DNA of 64,000 nucleotides from an uncultured Candidatus Saccharibacteria bacterium. Lineage in GTDB: Bacteria; Patescibacteriota; Minisyncoccia; Phycocordibacterales; G965230995. Position 1 is the first letter of the stretch. The number at the start of each line of letters is the position of its first letter. The translations under genes and the position numbers were made by a program. Below the pieces are notes generated by a model. That model made no database searches. It worked only from the letters and a program-made list of their open reading frames with translations, and was not told where the DNA came from. Below, one piece after another: positions 7,934 to 62,125 of the stretch. The DNA is taken from contig OZ246398.1 in the NCBI GenBank assembly GCA_965230995.1, positions 144,227 to 208,226 of the forward strand. The letters are read 5' to 3'.

Positions 7934-7937
7934 ATAT

Positions 7938-8408
7938 ATGCGATCGAACGGATTTAGTATTATTGAAATAATAATATCCGCATCAATCATTATGGCGACA
8001 GTTGTTGCCACAATGACGGTTTTTGAATCATATCTAAAAATTGCTTTTAAAAGCTCTGAAAAAACATACAGCGCCCTACTTGCCGAAGAAGGAGCTGAAA
8101 TAATACAAGTTCTAAGAGACAACGGTTTCGGACAAAACATAGCACCTCTCGCTGTTTCTACTGCATACTATTTGTATTGGAATGGTACATCATTTGGAGC
8201 AACTACAACTCCGCAAATAATAAACGAGCAGTATCTACGAACAATTCAGTTCGAAAATATTTATCGTGATGCAAACAGCGATATTGCGGAAACAGGCACA
8301 CTCGATGAAAATACAAAGAAAGTTTCAATTACGGTATCCAAAACATCTGCAACAAACACTCCGATATTCTATACAGAAAGCTTAATTCACAATACATATG
8401 AAAATTAA
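7938..8408 (+). CDS. type IV pilus minor pilin (PilV-like)
   Basis: MRSNGFSIIEIIISASIIMA prepilin motif; start moved to internal Met. Confidence 0.65.
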   Translation: MRSNGFSIIEIIISASIIMATVVATMTVFESYLKIAFKSSEKTYSALLAEEGAEIIQVLRDNGFGQNIAPLAVSTAYYLYWNGTSFGATTTPQIINEQYLRTIQFENIYRDANSDIAETGTLDENTKKVSITVSKTSATNTPIFYTESLIHNTYEN

Positions 8409-8910
8409 CACCGAAAAAGGTTTTACAATGGTGGAATTGGTTATGTATATAGCCGGGATGACTGTTCTTTTGATTGCAATCGGTACTTTGATTTATAGTA
8501 TGTATGACTTTTACAAAGACGCAACAATCGGCCCTCGAGTAGACCGCGTTGGCCTTTCTGTGATAGACAGAATAACAAAAGACGTTCGAACCGGTGTTTC
8601 TATTAATACAGAACAAAGCAAATTCGGTGTTCCGACCGGTGCAATATCTCTAAATGCTCAGAACGATACGACACTTCTCACAAAATATTTTGAATTAAAA
8701 GACGGCAGAATTATCTACAATGAAAATGGTTCTGGCGAACAGTTCCTAACCCCCGACGACCTTTCTGTTTCAAATTTTGAAATAACACAAATAAACACAC
8801 CAATTTCTATCGCTCTCAAATACACAATAGGTATTAATTACACAAATGACGGAGAAGAAAAATTAAAAAGCTACAGTGGAGTTGCAATATTAAGACATTC
8901 TTATGAATAA
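8398..8910 (+). CDS. type IV pilus minor pilin (PilW-like)
   Basis: MKINTEKGFTMVELVMYIAG prepilin motif; overlaps previous gene by 11 nt. Confidence 0.65.
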   Translation: MKINTEKGFTMVELVMYIAGMTVLLIAIGTLIYSMYDFYKDATIGPRVDRVGLSVIDRITKDVRTGVSINTEQSKFGVPTGAISLNAQNDTTLLTKYFELKDGRIIYNENGSGEQFLTPDDLSVSNFEITQINTPISIALKYTIGINYTNDGEEKLKSYSGVAILRHSYE

Positions 8911-10675
8911 AAAGAATACACAAGGCGGTTATGTTGTGATAATAAATACTTTGTTTTTCCTTGTCCTAACTGGATTGCTAACTTTTGGTGTTATCAAACC
9001 AACTATATCAAGTTTTAATTCTGCCAATGCATTTTCACATTCGAAACAATCTTTTCTTTTAGCAAACAGTGCTCTCGAAGAAGGCTTGTATCGATTAAAA
9101 AACAGTATTCCTATTTCTTCTTCGGAAAATATATCGCTCAATTCTCAAAATGCAACCATTGCTGTTTCTGACACAAATGACGGAAAAATATTATCTGTAA
9201 ACGCAGACGTTAATGATTTTCAAAGAGATTTGGAGGTTTCTATAATCCAAGGTGTCGGTGTAAGTTTTAATTATGGTTTACAAGCCGGCCAAGGAGGATT
9301 TGATTTGAGCGGTGGTGCCTACATAATTGGAAATGTCTACTCAAATGGTGATGTAACGGGCAGTGGTGGCCCATATATTACCGGATCTGCAACAGTTGCA
9401 AACGCAACAGACCCAAGCGCAATAATATCCCACATGGGAACTATCCCTCCTCCGTACGCAATTGGTTTTGCAGAAGATACTTGGCCAGCTAACGACGCTC
9501 GAGATTTTGCACAAAGCTTTACCTACCCAAGTGACACAACAATAAACAGTGTAAAGTTTTATATGAAGAAAACTGCGAATATTTCGATGGAAAATTTAAC
9601 TTTCTATATAACAAACAATTCTAACGGCTCACCAGGGAAAAATATTCTTGCAACAGGATTCCTCAGCGCATCACAAGTAACCACTTCTTATAATTATTTA
9701 ACAATTCAACTATCTAGCCCAGCCTCCATATCCGCTGGAACTACATACTGGATGGTTTTTACAAATGTAAAAAGAACCTGGGGTTCACAATATGTAATAG
9801 GGGCAAGCCAAAACACATATCCAGGAGGATTTGCAAAAACTGGGGCTTGGTCAAATTCAAACGGAGGAAATTGGTCTTCAACATCACCTGCTGGACTGGA
9901 TGCATATTTTGAAATATTTACAGGCGGTGACTCTGGTAGTATATCTGGAATGGCAATACACGGTGATGCTTGGGCTCATGAAATAAACAGCTCTAATATA
10001 TCTGGCTCTGCCTATTGTCAGGCATCAAACAGCAATAACAAACCTTGCGATTCAACGAGACCCGACCCAGCTACAGTAGCAATGCCAATATCTGATGGAA
10101 ATATAGAGGAATGGAAAGCCGCAGCAGAAGCTGGCGGTGTGATAACAGGTGATCTTTCATACGGAAGCCAGGACACAGAATATATTGGACCTAAAAAAAT
10201 TATCGGCAATCTAGATGTCGGAGCTGGAGCAACTCTTTATGTCACTGGCACACTATATGTAACTGGTAATGTTTCTGTATCAGGTGGAGGAAAAATTATG
10301 CTCTCGACCAGTTATGGAAACAATAGCGGAATAATAGTAACAGATGGAAAGATTTATGCCGGCGGAGGAGGATTCTTTGAGGGAAATGGTTTTACTGGAA
10401 GTTATATATTACTAGTCACGACAAGCACCTGCCCAACAAATTGTGGAAATAACGATTACGCTGTAGACATAAGTGGTGGGGCCGGTGCTGTAATCGTCAA
10501 TGCGCAAAAAGGAACAATTGTATTTACTGGAAGCGGACAGGCAAAACAAGCTACAGGTTACAGAATTGTTTTGAGTGGTGGAGCAAGTGTTCGCTACGAA
10601 ACTGGAATTGCGGATATGTCATTTAATAGCGGTCCATCGGGAACTTGGAATATCTCAAAATGGGACGAAAAATAA
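8903..10675 (+). CDS. large pilus-associated protein (PilX/PilY1-like tip or adhesin candidate) with Gly-rich repeats
   Basis: 590 aa, N-terminal hydrophobic pilin-like anchor (degenerate prepilin, no Glu5), Gly/Ser/Thr-rich repetitive C-terminal half; last gene of minor-pilin operon. Confidence 0.5.
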   Translation: MNKKNTQGGYVVIINTLFFLVLTGLLTFGVIKPTISSFNSANAFSHSKQSFLLANSALEEGLYRLKNSIPISSSENISLNSQNATIAVSDTNDGKILSVNADVNDFQRDLEVSIIQGVGVSFNYGLQAGQGGFDLSGGAYIIGNVYSNGDVTGSGGPYITGSATVANATDPSAIISHMGTIPPPYAIGFAEDTWPANDARDFAQSFTYPSDTTINSVKFYMKKTANISMENLTFYITNNSNGSPGKNILATGFLSASQVTTSYNYLTIQLSSPASISAGTTYWMVFTNVKRTWGSQYVIGASQNTYPGGFAKTGAWSNSNGGNWSSTSPAGLDAYFEIFTGGDSGSISGMAIHGDAWAHEINSSNISGSAYCQASNSNNKPCDSTRPDPATVAMPISDGNIEEWKAAAEAGGVITGDLSYGSQDTEYIGPKKIIGNLDVGAGATLYVTGTLYVTGNVSVSGGGKIMLSTSYGNNSGIIVTDGKIYAGGGGFFEGNGFTGSYILLVTTSTCPTNCGNNDYAVDISGGAGAVIVNAQKGTIVFTGSGQAKQATGYRIVLSGGASVRYETGIADMSFNSGPSGTWNISKWDEK

Positions 10676-10694
10676 AAGCCCCTTCGGGGCTTTT
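10674..10694. terminator. bidirectional terminator between convergent pilus operons
   Basis: aaaagcccc ttcg gggcttttatttttc. Confidence 0.6.
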
Positions 10695-10703
10695 ATTTTT
10701 CTT

Positions 10704-11915
10704 TTATATTTTATCTGCGAGTGAATACATAGGAGACATCATCGACAAAGCAAAGAACCCCACCGCCCCACCGATAAGTATCATTAGAAATGGTTCGATT
10801 ACAGTAGACATATCTTTTGTTTTTTGCTCGACTTCTTCTTCGTAAAATTTTGCAACCTCAAGCAACATTTCAGATAATTTTCCTGTTTCCTCGCCTACCT
10901 TTGCCATTTCTGAAACATACAATGGGTACAAATTTACCCTGGAAGAAAATATTTCAGAGATGCTTCCACCTTTTACTATCACCTCTCCCGCTTCTTTGAG
11001 AACACTTTTATAATATGAATTTTGCAAAACATCTTCTGTTATTCCAACCGCAATAGTATATTCAACCCCTGAAGAAAGTAGTGAAGAAAGTGTTCTGGCA
11101 GTCCTTGCAGAATTAACTTTTTTTGTGATATCACCTATTAATGGGGTCTTTAAAAAAACATAATCTAAAACTCTCTTTCCATTTTTAGTTCTAAAGTACA
11201 TTCCACCCAAAACAACGACACAAATTACAGCAAATAATGTGAGCAAAAGATTGTTATTTATAAATTCGCTCACATAAATAATTATTTTTGTACTCATCGG
11301 AAGATCAACGCCCAGACCTTTAAATGTTGCAGTAAGAGTTGGCACCACAAAAATAAGCATAAGAGTAGCAATAAGTATCATTGCAAAAAGGATTATGCCA
11401 GGATACATCATCGCGCCTTTGATTTTTTTCTTTAGAATATATGTCCTTTCCATCTGGCCAGAAACAATCTCTAGAGATTCGCTCAAATTACCGCTTTCCT
11501 CGCCTGCTCTAACCATCGAAACAAAAAGCGTAGAAAATACTTCTTTATGTTCAGACAAACATTCGCTTATTGTTTTACCTTTACTCACTCCGTCGTTTAT
11601 ATCAACCAAAACCTTTTTAAATTTACCTTCTTTTGCCTGCTTTTCCATTATTTCCAGAGCTCTGACAACGGGCAAACCAGAGGCAATCATTTTGCCCAAG
11701 TTTCTCGCAAATACAATCAAATCTTGTTCTTTTACTCTACCAAAAGAGAAAGAAATATTAGAAAAAAGTTTTCTACCTGTCTTTTCTTCGACATATATTG
11801 CGGTTAAACCCTGAGATGCAATTTCTGTCGAGATAGCTTCTTTGCTTTCGCCTGTTTTTTCGCCTTCGACTATTTCGCCTTGCTTATTTACAGCCTTATA
11901 AAAATAAGTTTTCAT
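10704..11915 (-). CDS. pilC: type IV pilus assembly platform protein PilC (GspF family)
   Basis: 403 aa, three TM segments, duplicated GspF-type cytoplasmic domains. Confidence 0.85.
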   Translation of the reverse strand: MKTYFYKAVNKQGEIVEGEKTGESKEAISTEIASQGLTAIYVEEKTGRKLFSNISFSFGRVKEQDLIVFARNLGKMIASGLPVVRALEIMEKQAKEGKFKKVLVDINDGVSKGKTISECLSEHKEVFSTLFVSMVRAGEESGNLSESLEIVSGQMERTYILKKKIKGAMMYPGIILFAMILIATLMLIFVVPTLTATFKGLGVDLPMSTKIIIYVSEFINNNLLLTLFAVICVVVLGGMYFRTKNGKRVLDYVFLKTPLIGDITKKVNSARTARTLSSLLSSGVEYTIAVGITEDVLQNSYYKSVLKEAGEVIVKGGSISEIFSSRVNLYPLYVSEMAKVGEETGKLSEMLLEVAKFYEEEVEQKTKDMSTVIEPFLMILIGGAVGFFALSMMSPMYSLADKI

Positions 11916-11942
11916 TACTATAATTGTAGCACAATAAAAATA

Positions 11943-13694
11943 TTATTCTGAAACGACTCGCAAAACTTCTTCTATTGTTGTAACACCAAGGACGGATTTG
12001 AATATTCCGTCTTCAAGCATAGTGAGCATTCCTTCTTTTTTAGCTTGAGCTTCTATTTCTTTTTCTTGAGCACCCTTTATTATCAAATCTTTTATGGATG
12101 GAGTAACTTTTAGAACTTCGTGTATTCCAAGTCTTCCGCTATATCCGTCTTCGGATGTGGCTGTTGGTTTTGGTTTGTAAAAAGTAACTTTCTCCCAAGG
12201 AGTCCCTTCTTTCACGACTTTTTCTTTTACCAAAAACGACATTATTCTATCCAAATCTACTTTTTTCGAAAGTTCGGCAAGCTCGTCTTTTGAAAGAAAA
12301 TATTTATCTTTTCCTTCAAGCCTTCTGATGAGCCTCTGTCCGATTACAATATCTAATGTAGAGACGAGTAAAAAAGGTTCGACTTTCATATCAAGAAGTC
12401 TTGGTATCGCACCAGCAGCTGAATTTGTGTGTAATGTAGATAACACCAAGTGACCTGTGAGAGAAGCGTTTATCGCAAGCGATGCTGTTTCGTTGTCTCG
12501 GATTTCACCAACCATAATTATATCTGGGTCTTGTCTAACTAATGTTCGGAGCCCAGATACAAAAGTAAGCCCAATTTCTGGTCTAACCTGTGTTTGGTTC
12601 ACACGTTTTAATTGATATTCAACAGGATCTTCAATAGTAGAAATATTTACATCGGGTGTATTTAAAATATCGAGCACTGTATAAAGAGTAGTTGTTTTAC
12701 CAGAACCTGTTGGTCCGGTTGTAAGTATCATTCCAGTTGTGGCTTTTGTGGCTTCGTGGATTCTTTCGAGGCTCTCCCCGTGAAAACCAAGAGTTTCTAG
12801 CGTGAGAACGCTAATATTTTCTCGCAAAAGTCTCATCACGATTTTTTCTCCGTAATATGTCGGCAAAGTAGAAACACGGAATGCTACCCTTTCGTTGTTT
12901 AATTCTATTTTGAAACGTCCGTCTTGTGGTAATCTTTTCTCATCGAGCTTTAGGCTAGAAAGCACTTTAATTCTGGCACTGATGCTGGGTCCGGTATTTT
13001 TTGGCAAAACCATCGCATCGTGCAAAAGACCATCAATCCTGTATCTCACCAAAACCTGTTCTTCCATTGGTTCTATATGGATATCTGATGCGTCTTGTAA
13101 AATGGCGTGCTTGAGGAGCGTATCAACAATACGGACAACCGGAACATCATCGGCAAGTTTTTTTAAATCTTTTTCTGATATTTCTTCGTCGTCTGTCTTT
13201 TCAAGAATTGTCTTTATCGCTCCTGCTTCTTTTTGGATAATATCTCCGAATTCAGCTTTTAGGCTCTTTTGATATTGGAGTAAAACGCTTTTCATTGATT
13301 CGCTATCAGTAAGCCTAGGCAAAATCCTGAGACCTGTTTTTTTCTTTACGAAATCAATGGCTGTGAGGTCTTCTGTTTCGAGCATTGCAACTTCTAGCCC
13401 TTTGTCTGTCTTTTTGAAAGCCACAATATTGTGGTTTCTGGCAATTGGTTCTGGTATCAAAGAAAGAATTTCAAAACCGATTTTTTGTGTCTTTAAATCA
13501 ACAAAAGGTATACCTAGAATATAGGCTTGCATTCGTCTCAAGTCGTCTTCGGATATTTTTCCTTGGCTTACGAGTACATCACCAAGTTTTTGTTTTTTGC
13601 TTTCAGCGGTCTTCTTTGCATTTTCAAGATCTAATCTTGAAACAAGTCCAGAGTCATTAATAAAATCTACTAATTGAGTTTCATCTATGTGCAT
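11943..13694 (-). CDS. pilB: type IV pilus assembly ATPase PilB (GspE family)
   Basis: 583 aa; Walker A GPTGSGKTTT; GspE N-terminal domain; Walker B and His boxes present. Confidence 0.9.
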   Translation of the reverse strand: MHIDETQLVDFINDSGLVSRLDLENAKKTAESKKQKLGDVLVSQGKISEDDLRRMQAYILGIPFVDLKTQKIGFEILSLIPEPIARNHNIVAFKKTDKGLEVAMLETEDLTAIDFVKKKTGLRILPRLTDSESMKSVLLQYQKSLKAEFGDIIQKEAGAIKTILEKTDDEEISEKDLKKLADDVPVVRIVDTLLKHAILQDASDIHIEPMEEQVLVRYRIDGLLHDAMVLPKNTGPSISARIKVLSSLKLDEKRLPQDGRFKIELNNERVAFRVSTLPTYYGEKIVMRLLRENISVLTLETLGFHGESLERIHEATKATTGMILTTGPTGSGKTTTLYTVLDILNTPDVNISTIEDPVEYQLKRVNQTQVRPEIGLTFVSGLRTLVRQDPDIIMVGEIRDNETASLAINASLTGHLVLSTLHTNSAAGAIPRLLDMKVEPFLLVSTLDIVIGQRLIRRLEGKDKYFLSKDELAELSKKVDLDRIMSFLVKEKVVKEGTPWEKVTFYKPKPTATSEDGYSGRLGIHEVLKVTPSIKDLIIKGAQEKEIEAQAKKEGMLTMLEDGIFKSVLGVTTIEEVLRVVSE

Positions 13695-29600: not shown

Positions 29601-29661
29601 TTTTACTAATTATACGCCAAAAAGACACTTTTTGTCCTTGTTATACACACTATCCCCATAG

Positions 29662-29702
29662 TTATCCACAGTTTGGGGACAAAAGTCCTATATTATCCAC
29701 AC
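29662..29702 (+). promoter_or_regulatory. pair of perfect DnaA boxes (TTATCCACA x2, same orientation, 32 bp apart) in the yraN upstream region
   Basis: exact 9-mers at 29662-29670 and 29694-29702; a 2-mismatch variant tgttatacaca lies about 20 nt upstream. Confidence 0.45.
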
Positions 29703-30140: not shown

Positions 30141-30305
30141 GAAAGGAAATTGCAAGTCGGAGCTCGCCGCCTAAAACCACAAAAGAGCCCGGGGGAATAT
30201 CGGTGCGAACAATGTTTTGAATTGAGGGGGAAAAAAAATTTTTAATCCAATACGGAAACTCAGAAAAGACCCTAAAATATCGGCTTTTTTTGTTTGCCGC
30301 TTACA

Positions 30306-30334
30306 CTTGACTTCAAGGTATATATATGATATGC
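30306..30334 (+). promoter_or_regulatory. sigma70-like promoter for the GC-rich small ORF
   Basis: TTGACT - 17 nt - TATGCT. Confidence 0.45.
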
Positions 30335-30423
30335 TATTGGTGTCGTCGGAATTCCAAAAACCCGCTGACCTTGACGGTATCGTGCCGTCTAGAACATCAC
30401 ATCCCGAAGAAGGAGCGTTATTC

Positions 30424-30576
30424 ATGAAAAAAAATCTGGTGCTCGTCGGCAAGGCCGTCGCGCTCATCTGTTCGGTCGCGGGTCTGTATTTCACCGCGAT
30501 GGGGCAGCACGAGGCCTCATCGATCGCGTGGAACAGTGCCGCTATCGCACTATGGGCCGTTTCGTTCGCCGCGTAG
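30424..30576 (+). CDS. small two-helix membrane peptide (50 aa) in a ~60% GC islet
   Basis: RBS GAAGGAG 8 nt upstream; MKKNLVLVGKAVALICSVAGLYFTAMGQHEASSIAWNSAAIALWAVSFAA; composition sharply different from flanks. Confidence 0.4.
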   Translation: MKKNLVLVGKAVALICSVAGLYFTAMGQHEASSIAWNSAAIALWAVSFAA

Positions 30577-30655
30577 CGTCGCTCGTCACACGGCCCCATC
30601 ACCGCGCTATTCTCCGGAGTAGTGCGGCTTTTCTTTTTTATTTAGGATTAAAAAA

Positions 30656-31669
30656 TCATCTCTCCATTTTCTTTAGCAGTTCCAAATATAGGTCTTCTAC
30701 TATTTTTTTCTGCTCCTCCCCTGATTTTGCATAGTGATCTAATCCAGGAGAAGAATTAATCTCCAACACATAATATTCATTGGGTTTTTCTGTAATATCT
30801 CCATTTACCATAATATCTACACCGCAAATTCTGAGACCCATCCCCTTTGTAATATTAATCGCTATATCCTTGAAATCTTGGTTGATTTCACGTGTAACAT
30901 CGACGCTCTCCCCTCCTGTCGATAGATTTGCATTGTCCAAAAGAAAGACTTTCTCACCAGATCGCAAAACATCTGACATTTTTAAACCAAGTCTATTTAA
31001 TTTGTTTGATATTCTAATATCATTCAAATCAATAATATTTCCTTTGCCCTGCTTTTTAAAAAACTCCTTTTTATTCTTTACTAGGCTTTCTATATCAAAA
31101 ACACCATCTCCGATAACAGAAAAAGGTTCTCTGGTATAGGCGGAAATGACTTTGTCGTCGAGAACAACAATTCTGCAATCCACGCCAGAAACAACGCTTT
31201 GGACTAATATTATCCTGTCATATTGAAATATTTCCTCCCCTGCTTTGTAGAATTCGTCTTTATTCGAAACAAAAAACACACCCTTGCCCTGACTTCCACT
31301 ATTTGGCTTCACAATTACTGGAAATCCTATTGATTCTGCATATTTATAGGCATTATCTAATTTTCTATCATACACCCCTATTATTTCCGACCATTCGTCC
31401 GAGAAAAAAGTCTTGCTATTTGGGACAACAGGAAAACCAAGCTGTTTTAAAAAGAAATTTGTGTAATCTTTGTCGACAGCAATTTTTACCGAGCCCGCGT
31501 GGTTTAGATCAAAAGAATTATATTTAAAATATGAAAAAAGACCGCTTTTCCATTTTATTCTTCCGCAAACTCCCCACTCTGGTTCAATCAAAACCTCTGC
31601 CCCTATTTTGGAAGCAAGTTTTTTAATCAGATCTCGCGAAGTTAGTGGATAGTATTCTTTTTCGTTCAT
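30656..31669 (-). CDS. ATP-grasp domain protein (RimK/cyanophycin-synthetase-like ligase)
   Basis: ATP-grasp blocks FPVIVKPNSGSQGKGV and EINSSPGL; start ambiguous (MNEKEY chosen; the longer N-terminus is encoded by a palindromic motif). Confidence 0.6.
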   Translation of the reverse strand: MNEKEYYPLTSRDLIKKLASKIGAEVLIEPEWGVCGRIKWKSGLFSYFKYNSFDLNHAGSVKIAVDKDYTNFFLKQLGFPVVPNSKTFFSDEWSEIIGVYDRKLDNAYKYAESIGFPVIVKPNSGSQGKGVFFVSNKDEFYKAGEEIFQYDRIILVQSVVSGVDCRIVVLDDKVISAYTREPFSVIGDGVFDIESLVKNKKEFFKKQGKGNIIDLNDIRISNKLNRLGLKMSDVLRSGEKVFLLDNANLSTGGESVDVTREINQDFKDIAINITKGMGLRICGVDIMVNGDITEKPNEYYVLEINSSPGLDHYAKSGEEQKKIVEDLYLELLKKMER

Positions 31670-31742
31670 TTGCGTATTATACACATAATCAAAGAAAATG
31701 TTTCGCGTGTAACATTCCATAAAATGATATATAATTATCAAA

Positions 31743-33230
31743 ATGAAAAAAGCCTCAATTGACCCAAAAACCTTTAATATTCCGGAGGTTGTTTCGCGTG
31801 TAACATCTGTTTTACAAGATAATGGCTATGAAGCCTATATTGTCGGCGGTTGTGTTCGTGACCTTTTCCTTGGAAAAACGCCTAAAGATTGGGATATAAC
31901 AACAAATGCCACTCCTGAACAGATTATTTCCCTATATCCAGAAACATTTTACGAAAATTCTTTTGGAACGGTTGGTGTCGTGACAGAATCAGAAGAGCCT
32001 ACACTAAAGGTTATCGAAATAACCACATATCGAATAGAATCGGGCTACAGCGACAAAAGAAGACCTGACAATGTATCTTTTAGTGTAAACATACACGACG
32101 ACCTAATGAGACGCGATTTTACGATAAACGCAATGGCTTTTGATCCGAAGTCCGGGACTCTCATTGATTCCTTTGGCGGAATTGAAGATTTACACAAAAA
32201 ACAAATAAAAACAGTTGGAAATCCCGAGGATAGGTTCAACGAAGATGGTCTACGGATATTGCGTGCGATACGACTTAGCTCTGAACTTGGTTTTGATATC
32301 GAAGAAAAAACAGAAAAAGCCATAAAGGACAATTCTTCCCTACTCAATCATATTTCTGCAGAAAGAATCCGCGATGAATTCATAAAAGTCATTTCTTCAC
32401 AGAACGCTCTGCAAGGTATTGTAAACAGTCACAGATTAGGTGTTCTGTCCTTTATAATCCCAGAATTAGAAGAAGGAATTGGTGTGGAACAAACTGCTAC
32501 ACACGCTTATGATGTATGGACACACCTATTAAAAAGCCTAGAACATTCAATAAACAAAGAATATCCGTTACACGTGAAACTGGCTGCCTTGTTACACGAT
32601 ATAGGAAAGCCACGTTCAAGGAGATTTTCAACAGGTAAAGAAAAATATACCTTCTACGGTCACGAAGTTTCAGGGGCTAAAATAGCCAAAAGCATACTAG
32701 AAAGGCTTAAATTTCCAAAAGAAACGGTAGAAAAAGTAACAAAATTGGTTAGATGGCATATGTTTTTCTCGGATACCGAACAAATTACATTGTCTGCAGT
32801 AAGAAGAATGATAGTAAATGTAGGAAGTGATCTAGTCTGGGATTTAATGAACGTTAGAATATGTGACAGAATTGGAACAGGAAGACCAAAGGAAAACCCT
32901 TACAGATTAAGAAAATACAAAGCAATGGTTGAAGAAGCTCTACGAGACCCTATTTCTGTCCAGATGTTAAATATCGATGGTAAAAGGATTATGGATGTTA
33001 CACGTGAAAACCCTGGACCAAAGATTGGCTATATTTTAAATGCCCTACTTGAAGAGGTTTTGGACAATCCAACCCTAAATACAGCCGAATATCTAGAAAA
33101 AAGAACACTGGAGCTGTCAAAATTAGATGAAAAAGAGCTTAGAAAGATTTCAGATAAAGGAAAAGAAAAGAAAGACGAAGAAGAAAAGAAAGAACTAAAA
33201 AAGATTCACGCGAAACATAAAGTAGATTAG
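31743..33230 (+). CDS. cca: CCA-adding tRNA nucleotidyltransferase with C-terminal HD domain
   Basis: GGCVRDLFLGKTPKDWDITT Pol-beta NTase motif; HD domain LLHDIGK. Confidence 0.85.
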   Translation: MKKASIDPKTFNIPEVVSRVTSVLQDNGYEAYIVGGCVRDLFLGKTPKDWDITTNATPEQIISLYPETFYENSFGTVGVVTESEEPTLKVIEITTYRIESGYSDKRRPDNVSFSVNIHDDLMRRDFTINAMAFDPKSGTLIDSFGGIEDLHKKQIKTVGNPEDRFNEDGLRILRAIRLSSELGFDIEEKTEKAIKDNSSLLNHISAERIRDEFIKVISSQNALQGIVNSHRLGVLSFIIPELEEGIGVEQTATHAYDVWTHLLKSLEHSINKEYPLHVKLAALLHDIGKPRSRRFSTGKEKYTFYGHEVSGAKIAKSILERLKFPKETVEKVTKLVRWHMFFSDTEQITLSAVRRMIVNVGSDLVWDLMNVRICDRIGTGRPKENPYRLRKYKAMVEEALRDPISVQMLNIDGKRIMDVTRENPGPKIGYILNALLEEVLDNPTLNTAEYLEKRTLELSKLDEKELRKISDKGKEKKDEEEKKELKKIHAKHKVD

Positions 33231-33261
33231 TTACACGCGAAACATAGATAATACTACAAAA

Positions 33262-33292
33262 CACAAAAACGGCTTTATAAAGCCGTTTTTGT
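33262..33292. terminator. bidirectional terminator
   Basis: aaaaacggcttt ataa agccgtttttgtg. Confidence 0.55.
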
Positions 33293-33355
33293 GTTTTTGT
33301 TCCACGTGTAACACTGTATTTTGTTTCTTGTGAAACATTTTATTGTATAAAAAGG

Positions 33356-33555
33356 TAGGGGCGGAGAGTAAACGGTACTCTACTACGCCCCTTTCTGTGG
33401 TTGGGTGGTACGAGGTGGCATTACTGCCGGTACCCACCATTTCGAAGCCTGGAAAGACGACAGCCAATCGCCCGCCGGATCGCTTCGAGGTTAGGTTATT
33501 TGACACTGGTTGTCAAAATTAACCTTCGCAAGGAACTAAGTCCACAAACACAGAG
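33356..33555 (+). ncRNA. GC-rich structured RNA-like segment of unknown identity (possible upstream part of an ssrA precursor)
   Basis: TATAAA -10-like box at 33346; nested GC helices (aggggcg...cgcccct; ttcgaagc...gcttcga); contains ...ggtacccACCA at 33430-33440; no credible ORF. Confidence 0.3.
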
Positions 33556-33840
33556 GGGGTATGATTCAGTTCGATACGGACAACGAGTGGAGAGTCTGTG
33601 TAGTGGACGAGAATAAAATATCATAATGTATCATTTATGTCAACAAAAAACCGCGCCTCACAAATTGGTACGCTGGTCGGACGAAAACTAGCGAAACAAT
33701 GCGATTTGACGCGGTGTATATCATTCTGCTGTTGCTGTGGAGTATATGCAACAGACAGAAAGACAGCGTATGTAAGAACCTGGCCAGGCCCTCTATGCTA
33801 AGGAACTAATTCTTTGAACATTCAGCCGGTTTTTGTCTTT
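33556..33840 (+). ncRNA. ssrA: tmRNA-like RNA (ssrA candidate): canonical 5' tRNA-like domain, 3' boundary and tag unresolved
   Basis: GGGGGTATGATTCAGTTCGATACGGAC matches the tmRNA 5' consensus GGGGnnGATTCnGGATTCGAnnGG; downstream GTCGGACGAAAACTAGCG resembles the resume region; no TTCGA T-loop or CCA acceptor found downstream. Confidence 0.4.
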
Positions 33841-33945
33841 TATCTTCTCGACTACCACCAACTGATCTGTTGTCCATTATAGCAACATATAAAGGACACG
33901 CAAATAAAAGTTGTGGATAAGTGTCCTTTAAGGTGTAAAGGACAA

Positions 33946-34716
33946 TTATAAATTAATATCGAGCGAAATAGGGCAGTGGTCGGATCCTGTTATATCTGTG
34001 TGTATTTCAGCGCTTTTTACTTTTGGAATAATCTCTTTGTTTATAAAAAAATAGTCAATTCTCCAGCCAACATTTCTCTCTCTTGCACTGGTTTTTGTAT
34101 CCCAATATGAATAAACATTTTTCTTTTCTGTATTTAAAAATCTCCAAATATCTACATAACCATTTGAAATGACCTCGTCGATCCATGCCCTCTCGATAGG
34201 GAGAAAACCTGTACTTTCCATATTTTCTTTTGGTCTTGCAAGGTCAATTTCTGTATGTGCAGTATTTACATCACCACAAAATATGACGTTTTTGCCTTGT
34301 TTCTTGAAAAAATTCATTTTTTCAAGAAATGCCTTATAAAATCTAAGTTTGTAATCTAACCTGACAGGACCACCGCCCCCGTTTGGAAAATAGGCGTTAA
34401 CTACAATGTATTTTCCAAAATCGACAATTAGAGTACGGCCTTCCTTATCAAATTCTTCAATTCCGAGACCTTCATATACCTTTTCTGGCTTGATTTTTGT
34501 ATAGATAGCGACACCACTGTAGCCTTTTTTCTCTTTAGAATGGTCAAAATATGCAAAAAAACCGAGGGGATTACGCACTTCTTCGGGCATTTGATCTGGA
34601 TGTGCCTTTGTTTCTTGTAAACAAAAAATGTCTGGCGAATCGCTTATTAGCCAGTTCCAGGCCCCTTTTTTGTAATTAGCTCTCACTCCGTTTACATTCC
34701 AAGAAACAATTCTCAT
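33946..34716 (-). CDS. xth: exodeoxyribonuclease III
   Basis: 256 aa; MRIVSWNVNG start and EEP-family catalytic blocks. Confidence 0.9.
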   Translation of the reverse strand: MRIVSWNVNGVRANYKKGAWNWLISDSPDIFCLQETKAHPDQMPEEVRNPLGFFAYFDHSKEKKGYSGVAIYTKIKPEKVYEGLGIEEFDKEGRTLIVDFGKYIVVNAYFPNGGGGPVRLDYKLRFYKAFLEKMNFFKKQGKNVIFCGDVNTAHTEIDLARPKENMESTGFLPIERAWIDEVISNGYVDIWRFLNTEKKNVYSYWDTKTSARERNVGWRIDYFFINKEIIPKVKSAEIHTDITGSDHCPISLDINL

Positions 34717-35094: not shown

Positions 35095-36045
35095 ATGGAA
35101 TTTTTTAAAAAAACTATCGAAACAATAAAGGAAGGGGAGAGACAAAGTAAAATAATCGTTCTACTTTGTCTAATGATATTTGTGATTTCTGGTCTTTCTG
35201 TAAATAATGAAATCCGTGCAAGAAGAGTTATTTCGGAACTAGAAAAACAAAATCTATCACTCGGAGAAATAAAATCTGATTTATCTTCAACTACTACAAA
35301 ACTTGGACTTGCAATATCAAATTCTCATCTTTCACTTTCTGAAGAATTAACAAAAGAAAAAGAAAAGGCAAGTGTTCTAGAAAACAAATTGGGAACATTC
35401 GAGGAAAAAGTAGGGACTATATCTGGTACTGTTACAACTTTGGAAAAATTGAGCAAAACAGATCCAGAACTTTTGCAAAAATATTCAAAAGTATTTTTTC
35501 TAAACGAACATTACGCACCTGAAAGACTTGTACAAATTGAAGAGCAATACGAATATTCTAAAACCAAGACAAATAAAATTCACGCTGGAGTTTGGCCTAA
35601 TCTACTCAGACTACTCGTACAATCAAAAATCGATGGAGTAGATATTTTTATTCTCTCAGCATTTAGATCTTTTGAAGAACAAAAGAGTCTCAAGGGACAA
35701 TATTCTGTTACATACGGAGCGGGAACTGCAAATCAATTTTCTGCTGATCAAGGATATTCTGAACACCAGCTAGGGACTGCTGTAGATTTTATGACAACTG
35801 GAATAGGTGGTTCTCTAACGACTGCTTTCGACAAAACAAAAGCATACGAGTGGCTGACAAATAATGCATATCGATATGGTTTTACACTTTCATATCCAAA
35901 AGGTAATTCATACTATGTTTACGAACCATGGCACTGGAGATTTGTCGGAGTGTCTCTTGCAACATATCTGCATAATAACCAAAAGAATTTTTACGATATG
36001 GACCAAAGAGATATCGATACATATTTAGTTAGTATGTTTGATTAA
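35095..36045 (+). CDS. peptidase M15B (VanY-like D,D-carboxypeptidase) with N-terminal anchor and coiled coil
   Basis: SEHQLGTAVD and EPWHWRF zinc-binding motifs. Confidence 0.75.
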   Translation: MEFFKKTIETIKEGERQSKIIVLLCLMIFVISGLSVNNEIRARRVISELEKQNLSLGEIKSDLSSTTTKLGLAISNSHLSLSEELTKEKEKASVLENKLGTFEEKVGTISGTVTTLEKLSKTDPELLQKYSKVFFLNEHYAPERLVQIEEQYEYSKTKTNKIHAGVWPNLLRLLVQSKIDGVDIFILSAFRSFEEQKSLKGQYSVTYGAGTANQFSADQGYSEHQLGTAVDFMTTGIGGSLTTAFDKTKAYEWLTNNAYRYGFTLSYPKGNSYYVYEPWHWRFVGVSLATYLHNNQKNFYDMDQRDIDTYLVSMFD

Positions 36046-36088: not shown

Positions 36089-36985
36089 TTATCTTTTGTT
36101 GTGAAAGTTTTTGTGAACATCACGAAGATGTTTATCTGTAACGTGAGTATATATCTGTGTAGTGCCAATATTGGCATGGCCAAGCAGAGCTTGGACGGAA
36201 CGGAGATCGGCCCCGTTCGATAAAAGGTCGGTTGCAAAGGAGTGTCTGATTACATGTGGCGTCACTTTTTTTGTAATTCCTGCTTTGATTGCGTAATGTT
36301 TGATTATTCTCTGTACTGCTCTTGACACCAAACCAGAAACATCTTTGTCTTTTTTAAAGATCTGAACAAACAGAGGTTCTGCCATATCTTTTCTTACTTT
36401 TAAATATTTTTCAACTGCATCTTTTGCTTCGTCAGACACAAAGACTACTCGGACTTTTTCTCCTTTTCCACGTACTGATAATTCTTTTGCTTTTAGATTT
36501 ACATCACGTGAGAGAGAACACAATTCAGAGACTCGAAGGCCGGTTGAAAATAGCATCTCTAAAATTGCCCTGTCGCGAAGCGATCTTTCGCTATCACCTG
36601 TTGGAGCATTAAGAAGTCTGATTAATTCATCGTGGGTTATCAAATCAAGACTTCGCTCGGCAACTTTTGCGAGTTCTATCTTGTCTGGAGGTAGGGAAGT
36701 CACACCTCTTTTCATTGCATATTTAAGAAGCGATCTCAGAGCGATTAGATAATAATTCTGTGTTTTTCTCTTTAGAGTATCGTTGCCTTTGCCACTAGAC
36801 TGTCTATTTAACCACAATCTGAATTCTCTGATTGTTTCATCGGAAATATCCTTCGGATCTTTGATTTTTGTATGTTCGATAAAGCGAGAAATATACCTAT
36901 CGTAGTTTTCTACAGTTTTTAGACTGCGTCCTTTTTCAATTTCTACATATTCTAGAAACTGCCTCTTTAGGGTTTGCATATCCAT
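36089..36985 (-). CDS. xerC: tyrosine recombinase XerC/XerD family
   Basis: 298 aa; phage-integrase fold with R...HxxR...Y (HVIRHSFAT, GHANIGTTQIYTH). Confidence 0.8.
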   Translation of the reverse strand: MDMQTLKRQFLEYVEIEKGRSLKTVENYDRYISRFIEHTKIKDPKDISDETIREFRLWLNRQSSGKGNDTLKRKTQNYYLIALRSLLKYAMKRGVTSLPPDKIELAKVAERSLDLITHDELIRLLNAPTGDSERSLRDRAILEMLFSTGLRVSELCSLSRDVNLKAKELSVRGKGEKVRVVFVSDEAKDAVEKYLKVRKDMAEPLFVQIFKKDKDVSGLVSRAVQRIIKHYAIKAGITKKVTPHVIRHSFATDLLSNGADLRSVQALLGHANIGTTQIYTHVTDKHLRDVHKNFHNKR

Positions 36986-53202: not shown

Positions 53203-53631
53203 ATGCAATTTCAAGTTCCTCAATATATAGAAGAAGATGACAAAATATTTTGGATGCTTTCTTTCAAACAAGCAATTTATATTGCCGGCGGTTTGGGTAT
53301 ATCTTTTGTAATCTACTACTTTTTAGGTTCACTATTATTTTCAATTCCTTTTATTGTACCGGTTCTTGTATTATCAGGATTACTAGCTTTCTACAGACAT
53401 AACAATAGACCCTTTATTTTCCTACTGGAAGCAATGTTCTACTATATGCTTAGCGACAAATTGTTCATCTGGAAAAAGATTCCAAAATATAATAATGAAA
53501 AAAGTACAGAAAAAGTAGAAAAAACAACAGACGAATTATCTATACCACGAGTAACCCAAGGTAACATCCATAATCTTTCTTGGAAACTGGATATGAATAT
53601 CGATGAAAAAAATGTGGATAAGCGAATATGA
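53203..53631 (+). CDS. small two-TM protein (PrgI/VirB3-like candidate)
   Basis: 142 aa; two adjacent TM helices; immediately upstream of the VirB4 ATPase, as VirB3-type proteins usually are. Confidence 0.45.
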   Translation: MQFQVPQYIEEDDKIFWMLSFKQAIYIAGGLGISFVIYYFLGSLLFSIPFIVPVLVLSGLLAFYRHNNRPFIFLLEAMFYYMLSDKLFIWKKIPKYNNEKSTEKVEKTTDELSIPRVTQGNIHNLSWKLDMNIDEKNVDKRI

Positions 53632-53643
53632 TATAATTAACTC

Positions 53644-54273
53644 ATGGCAATATCTTCAAAAACAGCACAAGAATTTGTACCGATAAAAGAAATCCGAAAC
53701 GAAACTGTCATAATGAAAGACGGATCTCTTCGTGGCGTTGTTTTGTGTTCTTCAATAAACTTTGCCCTCAAATCCGAGGATGAAAGAATGGCTGTTTTGG
53801 CGCAGTTTCAAAACTTTCTGAACTCACTCGATTTTGAAGTCCAGATATCAGTACAATCGAGAAAACTTGATATAAAATCATATCTTTCATTACTTGAAAC
53901 AAGAGAGGGGCAACAGATTAATGACCTGATGAGGATACAATTGAAAGAATATGTTGCTTTCATAAAGGATCTCACCGAAAAGATAAACATAATGACAAAG
54001 AATTTCTTTATTGTCGTTACATACAAACCATCAATCACAAGCGGGGAATCGGGGGTAGGAATACTAAAATTCGGTAAAAAACAAAGCGCCGAAGAAAAAA
54101 ATCAAACATTCGGAGAATCAAAATCACAGCTCGACGAAAGAATATCATTCGTGATGCAGGGTATTACCAGAACTGGAGTACGTGCAGAAAGACTTGGAAC
54201 CGAAGAGTTAATAGAATTGTATTATAGAACATTTAACCCAGGGGATACACAAGACCCTGCCAGAGCAATGTAA
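53644..54273 (+). pseudogene. VirB4/TraE-type conjugation ATPase, N-terminal portion (split from the C-terminal portion by a frame change)
   Basis: 209 aa resembling Gram-positive VirB4 N-domains; the next ORF starts 2 nt later in a different frame; 209 + 601 aa equals typical VirB4 length. Confidence 0.5.
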
Positions 54274-54274
54274 T

Positions 54275-56080
54275 ATGTCTTTATTAGATTTTTTCAAAAA
54301 AAATAAAACGACAACAGAACCCGTTTTGCCACAGGATATTTATGATGCGTCTGTTTTGGAATTGCAGGATGTCATTGCCCCAAGCGCACTCAAAATAAAT
54401 TCAAAAGAGACAATGATTTCTGGGATGATGGTTAGATCATATTTTGTCGTTTCATATCCTAGATTTGTTGGGGAAGACTGGCTTTCTCCTATTGTAAACC
54501 TAGACAAAGTATTTGATATTTCAATTTTTGTACATCCAATAGATACTTCTGTTATTCTAAAAAAATTCCAGAAAAAAGTAGCTGAAGTAGAAAGCCAAAT
54601 AAATGAACGCCAAGAAAAAGGACTCGTTAGAGATCCAAAACTAGAAATTGCATATCAAGACCTCGAAAATCTTAGAGATCAATTACAGCAAGCATCAGAA
54701 AAAATGTTTGATGTTGGTTTGTACATTTCTTTGTACGGAAAAGACGAAGCAGAAATAGATAAAGTAGAATTGGAAATAAAATCAATTTTGGAATCAAAAC
54801 TTATCTATGTTAAACCTGCTCTATTCCAACAAAAAGAGGGTTTTCTTTCTATGATTCCAACTGCTGACGATGCCTTGATGGTGCATACAAAAATGAATTC
54901 CTCTCCACTCTCGAGCACCTTTCCTTTTGTATCGTTTGACCTCACGTCTGATAGGGGAATATTGTATGGACTAAACAGACATAATTCAGGTCTTATACTT
55001 TTTGATAGATACTCGCTTGAAAACTACAATTCTATTACTTTTGCAAAATCTGGTTCAGGAAAATCTTATGCAACAAAACTAGAAATCCTTCGAACTTTGA
55101 TGTTTGATACCGAGGTTATAGTAGTTGACCCAGAAAAAGAATATCAGTACCTCGCCGAAGCAGTGGGGGGCAGATTCTTTAATATTTCTCTTAACTCTGA
55201 ACACCACATAAATCCATTTGAATTACCAACTCCAGGAGAAGACGAATCGGCAGAAAGCGTTCTTCGTTCAAACATCATAAACCTTGTTGGTTTGTTTAGA
55301 ATTATGCTTGGTGGTCTTTCTCCAGAAGAAGACGCAATAATCGACCAAGCCATAATGCAAACTTATGCATTAAAAGACATTACACCTGATTCAGATTTCA
55401 GAAATATCGAACCTCCACTTATGTCAGACTTTGAATTGGTGCTCTCTGGTATGCAAGGCGGAGAATCTCTCGCACAGAGACTCACAAAATATACAAAGGG
55501 TACTTGGGCTGGGTTCATAAACCAACCATCAAATATTGATATGAACAAAAAGCTTGTTGTATTTTCACTTCGAGATATGGAGGACGAGCTAAAGCCTATT
55601 GCAATGTATATTATTATGCATTACATCTGGAACACAGTCAGAAAGGATATCAAAAAGAGACTTCTTGTTATTGATGAAGCGTGGTGGATGATGAAATCCG
55701 AAGACACCGCATCATTTTTGATGGGACTTGTTAAAAGAGGGCGAAAATATTATCTTGGTGTATCTACAATCACACAAGACGTCGAAGACTTTTTGCGATC
55801 ACCATATGGAAAACCTATTATCACAAACTCTTCAATACAAGTCTTACTCAAACAATCTCCGTCAGCTGCCGACGTTCTACAAAATGTTTTTAATCTAACA
55901 GATGAAGAAAAATACACATTGCTTGAATCTGGAGTAGGAGAGGGGATTTTCTTTGCTGGAATAAAACACGCAGCTATAAAAGTCTATGCTTCTTATACAG
56001 AAGACCAGATTATTACATCTGACCCATCACAGTTACTTGCTATAAAAAAAGCAAAAGAAGAATTAAGAAATAGCCTTTAA
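54275..56080 (+). CDS. VirB4/TraE-type type IV secretion ATPase (C-terminal ATPase portion)
   Basis: Walker A FAKSGSGKSY; Walker B RLLVIDEAWWMM; motif GRKYYLGVSTITQDVEDF. Confidence 0.8.
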   Translation: MSLLDFFKKNKTTTEPVLPQDIYDASVLELQDVIAPSALKINSKETMISGMMVRSYFVVSYPRFVGEDWLSPIVNLDKVFDISIFVHPIDTSVILKKFQKKVAEVESQINERQEKGLVRDPKLEIAYQDLENLRDQLQQASEKMFDVGLYISLYGKDEAEIDKVELEIKSILESKLIYVKPALFQQKEGFLSMIPTADDALMVHTKMNSSPLSSTFPFVSFDLTSDRGILYGLNRHNSGLILFDRYSLENYNSITFAKSGSGKSYATKLEILRTLMFDTEVIVVDPEKEYQYLAEAVGGRFFNISLNSEHHINPFELPTPGEDESAESVLRSNIINLVGLFRIMLGGLSPEEDAIIDQAIMQTYALKDITPDSDFRNIEPPLMSDFELVLSGMQGGESLAQRLTKYTKGTWAGFINQPSNIDMNKKLVVFSLRDMEDELKPIAMYIIMHYIWNTVRKDIKKRLLVIDEAWWMMKSEDTASFLMGLVKRGRKYYLGVSTITQDVEDFLRSPYGKPIITNSSIQVLLKQSPSAADVLQNVFNLTDEEKYTLLESGVGEGIFFAGIKHAAIKVYASYTEDQIITSDPSQLLAIKKAKEELRNSL

Positions 56081-56082
56081 TT

Positions 56083-56694: not shown

Positions 56695-56747
56695 TTTTTA
56701 TTCACACCCCGCTTTAATAATTAGTACTAAAAGGCTATAATGTAGTT

Positions 56748-61902: not shown

Positions 61903-62125
61903 ACTGTTTGTTTACGTTTATAGATAGAGGAACTTTACATTAAAAAAATAAAAAGCGCAATAGGGGAGAGTAGCCAAAAACTTACTCCACACTTTATGCA
62001 CAGCTTATCAACATATAAGCTGTTTTTCCGCAAGTTCACGAACACACTACAGAGTATATAATGGATTTACTACAGAGAGCGATTGGGACAATTTTTTTTG
62101 AAACTTTAGTAATAAACATTGGAGT

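Follow-up and report, generated by a model that had tools for sequence, protein, structure and literature searches.

Nine parS-like palindromes clustered in and around cca, at a locus conserved among Parcubacteria

ParB (Spo0J) is a CTP-dependent DNA clamp, and in most bacteria parAB lies near both parS and oriC. In Bacillus subtilis, parS occurs as several imperfect copies, many of them within coding sequence and one inside spo0J; the sites are origin-proximal and act as the SMC loading point, with 8-10 of them spread over the origin-proximal ~20% of the 4.2-Mb chromosome and parAB beside oriC. The parS sites of Caulobacter crescentus, Corynebacterium glutamicum and Myxococcus xanthus are clustered within a few to tens of kilobases near the origin, forming one partition complex beside the parAB operon. 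The sites of Noc, termed NBS, are scattered, avoid the terminus and do not cluster. The origins of B. subtilis and Helicobacter pylori are bipartite, with DnaA-box groups in opposite orientation around dnaA. It has been documented that parS is ‘almost always’ near oriC (10.1101/724823; review PMC7333895), and its consensus, as given by Jalal et al. (bioRxiv 10.1101/724823), is TGTTTCAC-GTGAAACA. Noc, a ParB paralogue of Firmicutes only, recognizes a site built in the same way, the 16-bp palindrome TATTTCCC-GGGAAATA (10.1101/724823). According to the account of Minnen et al. 2011 given in PMC7333895, ParB-parS recruits SMC to the origin in Streptococcus pneumoniae, which has a small genome and no ParA.

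We analyzed a 64-kb stretch of DNA, hereafter the window, in which a palindromic motif is concentrated in and around the cca gene. The element type is already known; what is fresh is its class-wide embedding in cca, together with a possible origin at cca, and our literature search found no paper describing parS or oriC in Parcubacteria. The 14-bp core of the motif, GTTWCRCGYGWAAC, occurs in the window four times perfectly, eight times with at most one mismatch and nine times with at most two. All nine matches are confined to positions 30885-33336. The other ~61 kb hold none, which bears out an earlier remark that no similar density of the motif is seen elsewhere in the window. A scan of the window with the 18-mer (≤3 mismatches) also gave nine matches, against 0.23 expected and a count reached by none of 100 shuffles. 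Eight of these lie inside the cluster, and the ninth, at 16743 with three mismatches, looks like a chance occurrence. The sites and the two genes that carry them are as follows.

30656 to 31720, minus strand: RimK-like ATP-grasp gene (Pfam), with sites 1 and 2 inside
31743 to 33230, plus strand: cca, CCA-adding tRNA nucleotidyltransferase (Pfam PolyA_pol, PolyA_pol_RNAbd and HD), with sites 3-6 inside and sites 2 and 7 bracketing it
30884 to 30899: parS-like site 1, GATTTCACGTGTAACA, within the ATP-grasp coding sequence
31699 to 31714: parS-like site 2, TGTTTCGCGTGTAACA, at ATP-grasp codons 3-7, with the cca ATG 29 bp downstream
31790 to 31805: parS-like site 3, TGTTTCGCGTGTAACA, at cca codons 16-21 (VSRVT)
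32566 to 32581: parS-like site 4, CGTTACACGTGAAACT, at cca codons ~275-280 (PLHVKL, HD domain)
32996 to 33011: parS-like site 5, TGTTACACGTGAAAAC, at cca codons ~418-423 (VTREN)
33202 to 33217: parS-like site 6, AGATTCACGCGAAACA, at C-terminal cca codons (KIHAKH), the weakest of the nine
33229 to 33244: parS-like site 7, AGTTACACGCGAAACA, overlapping the cca stop codon
33298 to 33313: parS-like site 8, TGTTCCACGTGTAACA, immediately 3' of the cca terminator hairpin
33322 to 33337: parS-like site 9, TGTTTCTTGTGAAACA, 24 bp past site 8

A preliminary description of this DNA had listed nine sites, and all of them are present, displaced by 0-4 bases from its coordinates. It had also read the peptide MECYTRNIF at the ATP-grasp N-terminus, which is correct except that the ATG is at 31720 and not 31721, and VVSRVTSV near the N-terminus of cca, which corresponds to cca residues 16-23. 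The two inverted full sites that it saw bracketing cca are sites 2 and 7, which form a perfect 16-nt inverted repeat around the gene. A 27-bp tandem duplication spans 33193-33246, and its first unit contains site 6.

From their sequence, the nine palindromes are very probably chromosomal parS, the centromere-like loading sites of ParB (Spo0J). Their core equals the 14-bp parS core GTTTCACGTGAAAC, and they are 16-bp palindromes that match TGTTNCACGTGAAACA. Each window site differs from TGTTTCACGTGAAACA at 2-3 of 16 positions, or at 0-3 when the degenerate position 5/12 is ignored. Site 1 has three mismatches (two with that position ignored), site 2 has two mismatches to the consensus, and site 8 has none when position 5/12 is taken as N. 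The perfect consensus is found at none of the nine window sites and occurs exactly five times among relatives. Livny reportedly showed in 2007 that a single position is variable among known parS sites, and the W of GTTWCRCGYGWAAC coincides with what we take to be that sole variable position. Compared with Spo0J-parS of B. subtilis, the palindrome is the same 16-bp sequence (TGTTCCACGTGAAACA type), with site 8 matching at 15 of 16 bases, but here 2.5 kb accommodates nine sites, the gene that hosts them is cca, and no parAB lies nearby.

We extended the comparison to 80 related Parcubacteria genomes, whose cca genes are 58-65% identical; motif scans covered the 64-kb window and some 15 kb of each relative. 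The pooled profile of the relatives’ sites reads T-G-T-T-W-C-A-C-G-T-G-W-A-A-C-A. The bases flanking the core played no part in the search; across 211 relatives’ sites, T and A each reach 51% there, against a background of 28-32%, and this enrichment completes the 16-bp parS. At the two half-site positions by which parS and the Noc site differ, the bases are of the parS type, with G at position 2 in 85% and A at position 7 in 94% of the 211 sites. In the window, the left-position G is present in eight of the nine sites, and the A at position 7 is changed to G in sites 2 and 3. NBS itself (TATTTCCCGGGAAATA; A at position 2, C at position 7; Firmicutes) was considered and set aside, given G and A at these positions, a tight cluster and a Parcubacteria host. 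LexA/Cheo, CIRCE, Rex, NrdR, cre and RDRM boxes were also compared; none fits the motif, while parS does so exactly.

The cca-centred parS cluster is conserved across the whole class of Parcubacteria. At least one site is present in 72 of the 80 related loci. Of the 211 parS-like sites in these relatives, 210 are no farther than 2.5 kb upstream or 2 kb downstream of the cca start, with practically none in the other ~17 kb per locus. Sites with at most two mismatches number 384 in 321 kb inside the cca zone, compared with 19 in 903 kb outside it. Pairs of sites 23-26 bp apart recur among relatives, and within the gene there are recurrent hot spots at cca residues 17, 275, 295, 311, 324 and 419. 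Three of the window’s sites sit on them: site 3 on the hot spot at residue 17, common to 42 of 81 genomes (≤2 mismatches); site 4 on that at residue 275, common to eight genomes; and site 5 on that at residue 419, common to 27. Outside cca, many copies lie upstream (beside DnaA boxes and beyond tRNA genes), past the terminator and in an opposite-strand gene. A check proposed earlier, whether orthologous cca genes lack the motif, came out the other way: sites recur at the same cca codons among the related genomes. Like the clusters of C. crescentus, C. glutamicum and M. xanthus, the sites are concentrated, but here they are centred on cca with DnaA boxes flanking, and their intragenic positions are conserved class-wide. 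The cluster is a sequence landmark for the origin/centromere region in Parcubacteria, and could serve as a fixed point for genome finishing, for replication-rate (peak-to-trough) estimates and for the reading of metagenomic Hi-C data in uncultured Parcubacteria.

Intragenic copies are mostly in reading frame 0, where they encode V[ST]R[VE]T-like peptides; others occupy further frames and non-coding DNA. The frame-0 majority would fit a motif that arises as a by-product of coding a recurring cca peptide (V-S/T-R-V/E-T), and the preliminary description had proposed, as a refuting test, that the motif might simply reflect conserved protein sequence. We ran this test with 200 synonymous-codon shuffles, which preserve each protein and its codon usage. 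The 81 cca genes hold 128 intragenic sites, compared with 7.7 ± 2.5 (maximum 15) in the shuffles, and this ~17-fold excess indicates that what is selected is the DNA sequence, not the protein. With further copies in other frames and outside coding sequence, we regard the chance that the motif is a coding by-product as practically nil. The preference for frame 0 is explained by the risk of TAA/TGA stops in the other frames. The locus provides a clean natural case of a DNA-binding code overlaid on a protein-coding gene and held across deep divergence.

That many copies lie within the cca transcript, and that the palindrome can fold into a hairpin (stem 5 bp, loop 4 nt), also raises an RNA-level reading, in which a hairpin GUUUC-ACGU-GAAAC in cca mRNA would, for instance, mimic a tRNA minihelix through which the CCA-adding enzyme regulates itself. 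This is very unlikely. Many copies lie outside cca, one location being the gene on the opposite strand, and the stem shows no compensatory covariation: at its sole variable position, 77 of 219 sites carry T/T or A/A, which cannot pair, and window sites 1-3 and 8 are among them. The loop bases are, moreover, as invariant as the stem, as expected of protein-DNA contacts. An Rfam scan of the window returned four tRNAs and nothing else.

The preliminary description had raised an operator array for a dimeric regulator that it could not name. Its core idea, that a dimeric protein binds DNA at an array of sites, is retained; the anonymity of the protein and the role as a transcriptional operator are given up, the motif being canonical parS. 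As this motif is the universal bacterial centromere, there is no new regulator to seek. In its fullest form the operator proposal holds that a conventional dimeric transcription factor other than ParB co-regulates the divergent ATP-grasp and cca promoters and a downstream GC-rich RNA. Site 2 does lie over the ATP-grasp start, 29 bp upstream of the cca ATG, sites 8 and 9 have the cca terminator on one side and a GC-rich structured element on the other, and parB is absent nearby. However, most of the conserved copies sit deep in cca at fixed codons, away from promoters, and a promoter scan placed no sigma-70-like promoter over any site, with promoter counts equal to shuffle expectation. Relatives lack both the ATP-grasp gene and the GC-rich element yet still keep their sites, and the motif matches parS down to its flanks. 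We therefore consider a conventional operator array improbable. The GC-rich structured element downstream of cca is absent from the relatives’ loci and has no match among phages or plasmids, and a permissive Rfam scan of 33240-33960 gave no credible match.

On sequence comparison, the ATP-grasp gene is an insertion specific to this genome, placed between tRNA-Arg and cca: tblastn detected no homologue in the 80 related loci, and against metagenome contigs the protein had one match, 27% identical. This insertion, the perfect inverted repeat around cca and a nearby recombinase gene could each be taken as traces of mobile or recombining DNA, whether REP/MITE-like repeats, the termini of an inserted element or sites at which a recombinase could invert cca. 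The recombinase gene is the following.

36089 to 36985: tyrosine recombinase, XerC/D-type (Pfam), ~3 kb from cca

It is a conserved, syntenic gene of the XerC/D type found in 64 loci. The orientation of cca relative to UPF0102, xth, xerC and rpsO is identical in all 80 related loci, which speaks against an invertible segment. The suggestion that a palindromic repeat family had invaded coding sequence fails on two counts, as similarity between copies ends at 16-17 nt and copies occupy the same, orthologous codons of cca in distant relatives at ~60% protein identity. Nor are the sites the ends of a past insertion event, because relatives without the ATP-grasp insertion carry sites around cca. 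Taken together, we give a mobile-element or recombination origin hardly any credence. A REP/MITE assignment was also judged by its usual features (more than 30 nt shared; dispersed, mostly intergenic, non-orthologous copies) and rejected, the copies here being clustered and mostly intragenic.

Returning to the parS reading, the copies are restricted to origin-proximal DNA as far as the window and the relatives’ flanks were scanned: the window’s other 61 kb hold none, and the 903 kb of flanks hold, apart from the looser two-mismatch matches counted above, a single site. The cluster is origin-proximal by three observations: dnaA is 29 kb away, DnaA boxes flank the sites, and the cumulative GC-skew minimum of the window falls at 30-36 kb, with a gene-strand switch at 31.7 kb. 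The features concerned are these.

62126 to 63472, plus strand: dnaA (Pfam), flanked on the left by rnpA, yidC and jag and on the right by dnaN
29641 to 29701, plus strand: upstream DnaA-box group, TTATACACA at 29641 and TTATCCACA at 29662 and 29693, between the UPF0102 gene and tRNA-Gly
33912 to 33920, minus strand: downstream perfect DnaA box, TTATCCACA, between cca and xth

Further DnaA boxes lie near dnaA, at 61994, 62005, 63473, 63574 and 63639, three of them in the dnaA-dnaN spacer. The plus-strand boxes upstream of cca are conserved among relatives, often paired 20-21 bp apart, and 40 of the 49 perfect downstream boxes in relatives are minus-oriented, ~320-500 bp past the cca stop. The boxes are few, about 2.2 upstream and 1.4 downstream per related locus, compared with a background of 0.31 per kb, and their orientation is fixed. 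In 29 of 33 relatives, the GC skew turns from negative to positive over this locus (p = 9e-7).

Tentatively, these features raise the possibility that Paceibacteria/Parcubacteria keep one conserved centromere and origin module around cca and not around dnaA/parAB. The opposed DnaA-box groups might then form a bipartite oriC, with parS held in the cca frame by selection over class-level divergence, a distant ParB gene and possibly no ParA. Compared with the bipartite origins of B. subtilis and H. pylori, the bracketed gene would here be cca, with only about 2 + 1 boxes per genome. If the origin is truly at cca, origin predictors keyed to dnaA would misplace it in this lineage.

Pfam, motif and tblastn searches for parB and parA covered the whole window, L081, a further 6 kb past dnaA and, in the 80 relatives, the DNA up to 10 kb from cca; neither gene turned up. 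This result weighs against the parS reading, as do the lack of an exact consensus among the window sites and the CGCG centres described below. Six-frame regular expressions for ParB box II and the ParA Walker A motif gave no match in the window or the 80 loci; the expression for DnaA was too strict, as it did not match even the real dnaA found by Pfam. With B. subtilis Spo0J and Soj as queries, tblastn against all DNA examined gave a best E value no lower than 2.9, and a homologous-protein search with Spo0J returned Bacillus proteins only and no CPR ParB. In other Parcubacteria, Supplementary Table 1 of Nelson & Stegen 2015 (PMC4508563) records COG1475 (the Spo0J/ParB family, which also takes in ParB-like proteins other than centromere binders) in 13 of 17 genomes, including C7867-006 (locus L033), and smc in 14 of 17. 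The entries of the core-gene table for Parcubacteria (PMC4508563) include COG1475 and smc and not COG1192/ParA. In this the table, which covers other Parcubacteria, resembles S. pneumoniae, likewise without ParA. Among the entries listed in the supplement of PMC10936435, the only candidate is a 131-aa ParB-like nuclease-domain protein.

We infer that the sites are bound by this organism’s own ParB, whose gene would lie outside the window. Modelled on the established ParB-parS-SMC pathway, a ParB dimer would recognize each 16-bp site through its helix-turn-helix domains, bind CTP, close into a clamp and slide onto the DNA alongside. The nine sites in 2.5 kb could nucleate one large ParB-DNA complex beside the replication origin. 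By analogy, SMC condensin would probably be loaded by this complex at the cca cluster, so that newly replicated origins are separated; given a ParA partner, ParA would also pull the complexes apart. The ParB of this lineage would be expected to bind both TGTTTCGCGTGTAACA and TGTTACACGTGAAAC. An additional half-site, GTTACACG, is located at 32591. An unusual CGCG centre is present in four half-sites of the window, GTTTCGCG in sites 2 and 3 and CGCGAAAC in sites 6 and 7, and bases of this type are rare in relatives, where core position 6 is G in 7 and core position 9 is C in 6 of 219 sites.

We searched the window for the 18-mer of the preliminary description, ATGTTWCRCGYGWAACAT, allowing up to three mismatches, and compared the count with expectation and with shuffled sequence. 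Nine matches were found against 0.23 expected, a number reached by no shuffle; eight of the nine lie inside the cluster, and the remaining one, at 16743 with three mismatches, looks like a chance occurrence. The 14-bp core GTTWCRCGYGWAAC occurs four times perfectly, eight times at ≤1 mismatch and nine times at ≤2, always within 30885-33336, and at ≤2 mismatches it is absent from the remaining ~61 kb of the window. All nine sites originally named therefore exist, and the impression that no comparable density occurs elsewhere in the window was accurate. The same holds for the two coding statements, MECYTRNIF being the N-terminus of the ATP-grasp protein and VVSRVTSV lying within cca, while the inverted full sites said to bracket cca form a perfect 16-nt inverted pair. 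Sites 6 and 7 arose from a 27-bp tandem duplication (33193-33246, 78% identical) across the end of cca, and a half-site variant with a CGCG centre is specific to the window genome.

In sequence, GTTTCACGTGAAAC equals the core 14 bp of chromosomal parS. The 16-bp parS consensus is TGTTTCAC-GTGAAACA (bioRxiv 10.1101/724823), and the exact string recurs across the ParB literature. Window sites depart from the strict consensus at two to three of 16 positions, and the variation among them falls mostly at position 5/12. Livny et al. in 2007 reportedly gave this as the degenerate position of the classical parS consensus, TGTTNCACGTGAAACA. The pooled profile of 211 sites from relatives reads T-G-T-T-[T 62%/A 36%]-C-A-C / G-T-G-[A/T]-A-A-C-A, with the outermost T and A, which lie outside the search pattern, at 51% versus a background of 28-32%. 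The two bases that separate parS from the paralogous Noc site (bioRxiv 10.1101/724823) are G and A in the relatives' sites, which is the parS type. The element is of a textbook kind, and the GTTTCACGTGAAAC array a further case of known parS.

The genes of this region are as follows.

Genes at and downstream of the site array in the window
30656-31720, minus strand: RimK-like ATP-grasp gene, adjoining cca
31743-33230, plus strand: cca
33946-34716, minus strand: exonuclease III gene (xth)
35095-36045, plus strand: VanY carboxypeptidase gene
36089-36985, minus strand: XerC/D-type recombinase gene

A UPF0102 gene, tRNA-Gly and tRNA-Arg are the upstream neighbors of this block. The closest relatives of cca among species-representative genomes are 58-65% identical and come from Parcubacteria/Paceibacterota MAGs, for example Zambryskibacteria and Taylorbacteria. 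In 80 related loci the order UPF0102(-) / tRNAs / cca(+) / xth(-) / xerC/D(-) / rpsO(+) / NYN(+) / pnp(+) is kept. The ATP-grasp gene, the 143-aa ORF beside it (the two together spanning 30171-31720; the ORF has no Pfam match) and VanY were found in none of the 80 syntenic relatives, and are thus insertions peculiar to the window genome. The ATP-grasp insertion, between tRNA-Arg and cca, nevertheless carries two parS-like sites, whereas at the ancestral intergenic positions close to the DnaA boxes parS has become degenerate in the window genome. The divergent starts of the ATP-grasp gene and cca are 22 bp apart (31720-31743); a TATAAT at 31730-31735, read by eye and not listed by the promoter scan, stands ~7 bp before the cca ATG, suggesting that cca mRNA may be leaderless or near-leaderless. 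Two contigs, one named 'Candidatus Nanoarchaeia archaeon' (L006, DATGWK010000109.1, which also has the UPF0102-xth-xerC-rpsO-NYN synteny) and one 'Nitrospira sp.' (L072, JBEBJM010000054.1), have parS-like sites beside a cca that shares 60-62% identity with that of the window; both are probably mis-binned.

Across 1.22 Mb of relatives' sequence we counted 211 parS-like sites at ≤1 mismatch, 210 of them within -2.5 to +2 kb of the cca start, and no more than one falls in any of the remaining 500-bp bins within ±10 kb. At ≤2 mismatches there are 384 sites in the 321 kb inside this zone versus 19 in the 903 kb outside it. At least one site is present in 72 of 80 loci, with a mean of 2.8 per locus at ≤1 mismatch; pairs spaced 23-26 bp recur, and density is higher in the window, with nine sites in 2.5 kb versus about 3-5 in relatives. 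Intragenic sites recur at fixed columns of the cca alignment, corresponding to window residues 17, 275, 295, 311, 324 and 419, and window sites 3, 4 and 5 fall on three of these hot spots.

The motif could simply reflect conserved protein sequence, one of the outcomes that the preliminary description had named as its own refutation. We shuffled synonymous codons within each of 81 cca genes 200 times, leaving protein sequences and codon usage unchanged. The genes contain 128 intragenic sites versus 7.7 ± 2.5 (maximum 15) in the shuffles, and seven perfect cores versus 0.4, which refutes that explanation. At ~60% protein identity synonymous positions are expected to be saturated, and the retention of the sites is thus selection on the DNA sequence. 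An invading palindromic repeat family, also proposed at the outset, was not borne out: likeness between copies ends at 16-17 nt, the sole longer unit is the local 27-bp tandem duplication, and a mobile repeat was rejected. We likewise rejected an RNA hairpin, as the single variable 'stem' position cannot pair (T/T or A/A) in 77 of 219 sites, 'loop' and 'stem' are equally invariant, and many sites lie outside any cca transcript. The T/T-A/A variability and invariant loop fit independent protein-DNA half-site contacts, not an RNA helix.

Cumulative GC skew in the window declines over the first ~32 kb and climbs thereafter, with its minimum at 30-36 kb. Genes also divide at 31.7 kb, those to the left being mostly on the minus strand and those to the right mostly on the plus strand. 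Skew is lower to the left of the locus than to its right in 29 of 33 relatives (-0.036 versus +0.022, Wilcoxon p = 9e-7), and the difference holds though left-flank genes there are not mainly on the minus strand. Such a polarity marks an origin rather than a terminus. The classical origin neighborhood, jag-yidC-rnpA, dnaA and dnaN (61994-63647), also lies at hand: dnaA is 29 kb right of the cluster, in a block at 60.2-63.5 kb with jag-yidC-rnpA on the minus strand and dnaA on the plus strand; dnaN, also on the plus strand, follows just past the window end; genes past dnaN (PBP, RuvC; locus L081) are on the minus strand. DnaA boxes occur at both places.

DnaA boxes in the window
29662 and 29693 (perfect) and 29641 (one mismatch), group 29641-29701, plus strand: upstream of cca
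33912-33920 (perfect), minus strand: downstream of cca
61994 and 62005: upstream of dnaA
63473 (perfect), 63574 and 63639: dnaA-dnaN spacer

The arrangement around cca is conserved among relatives: all 44 perfect upstream boxes (-1500 to 0 from the cca start) are on the plus strand, often paired 20-21 bp apart, and 40 of 49 perfect downstream boxes (+1500 to +2500) are on the minus strand, about 320-500 bp past the cca stop; the DnaA-box background is 0.31 per kb at ≤1 mismatch. The replication origin may lie at cca, or else within the dnaA-dnaN spacer, where there are three boxes too. The bracketing boxes and skew switch suggest an origin or DnaA-controlled element at cca rather than dnaA. 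Whichever place holds the origin, the cluster is origin-proximal, as expected of parS.

None of the window ORFs that we scanned has a ParB or ParA domain, none turned up in the 6 kb beyond dnaA, and motif search and tblastn gave none in 1.3 Mb (window plus relatives' loci); with B. subtilis Spo0J as the query, a protein database yielded Bacillus sequences only. A binding protein is supported indirectly by a table of the genes that 13 or more of 17 Parcubacteria genomes have in common: COG1475, the Spo0J/ParB family, is present there in 13 genomes, under its old COG name 'Predicted transcriptional regulators', and smc in 14 (Nelson and Stegen, 2015; PMC4508563). Those 13 include C7867-006 (PMC4508563), from which locus L033 of our comparison comes. 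Judging from the order of locus tags, the COG1475 gene is close to dprA/dnaX and away from cca. COG1192 (Soj/ParA) is missing from that table, which is limited to such widely shared genes (PMC4508563). Our literature search found no description of parS or oriC in CPR/Patescibacteria. Less ordinary here are the density, the fact that sites are embedded at fixed codons of cca class-wide, the bracketing of cca by DnaA boxes, the absence of parAB nearby and the CGCG-centered half-sites.

Following the established pathway (reviewed in PMC7333895), the nine sites would serve as nucleation points for ParB dimers, which would then spread onto adjacent DNA, and one partition complex would form beside the origin and load SMC. 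A ParA partner, if there is one, would add active movement of this complex. For this organism we infer ParB binding and SMC loading from that pathway; what the data show is that the sites are identical in sequence to parS in kind, clustered, conserved, under selection as DNA and close to the origin.

Directly after the cca terminator and sites 8 and 9 lies a non-coding GC-rich element (33355-33625; ~52% GC versus 37% for the window). Scans for Rfam families, tRNAs and tmRNA gave no match, nor did phage or plasmid collections, and the element is missing from the cca-xth spacer in all 80 relatives; its plus strand folds at -92 versus -78 ± 4.7 kcal/mol for shuffles (z = -3.0). This could be a structured RNA of a new kind or what is left of a mobile element. 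The window also holds two surface-machinery clusters (7484-13694 and 53203-58984), with large ORFs near both, many lacking a Pfam match. One is type IV pilus/T2SS-like, with a pseudopilin bearing an N-methylation motif, T2SSF and T2SSE, and the other, a T4SS set of conjugation type, includes a PrgI-like protein, a T4SS pilin and an ATPase resembling TraG/VirB4.
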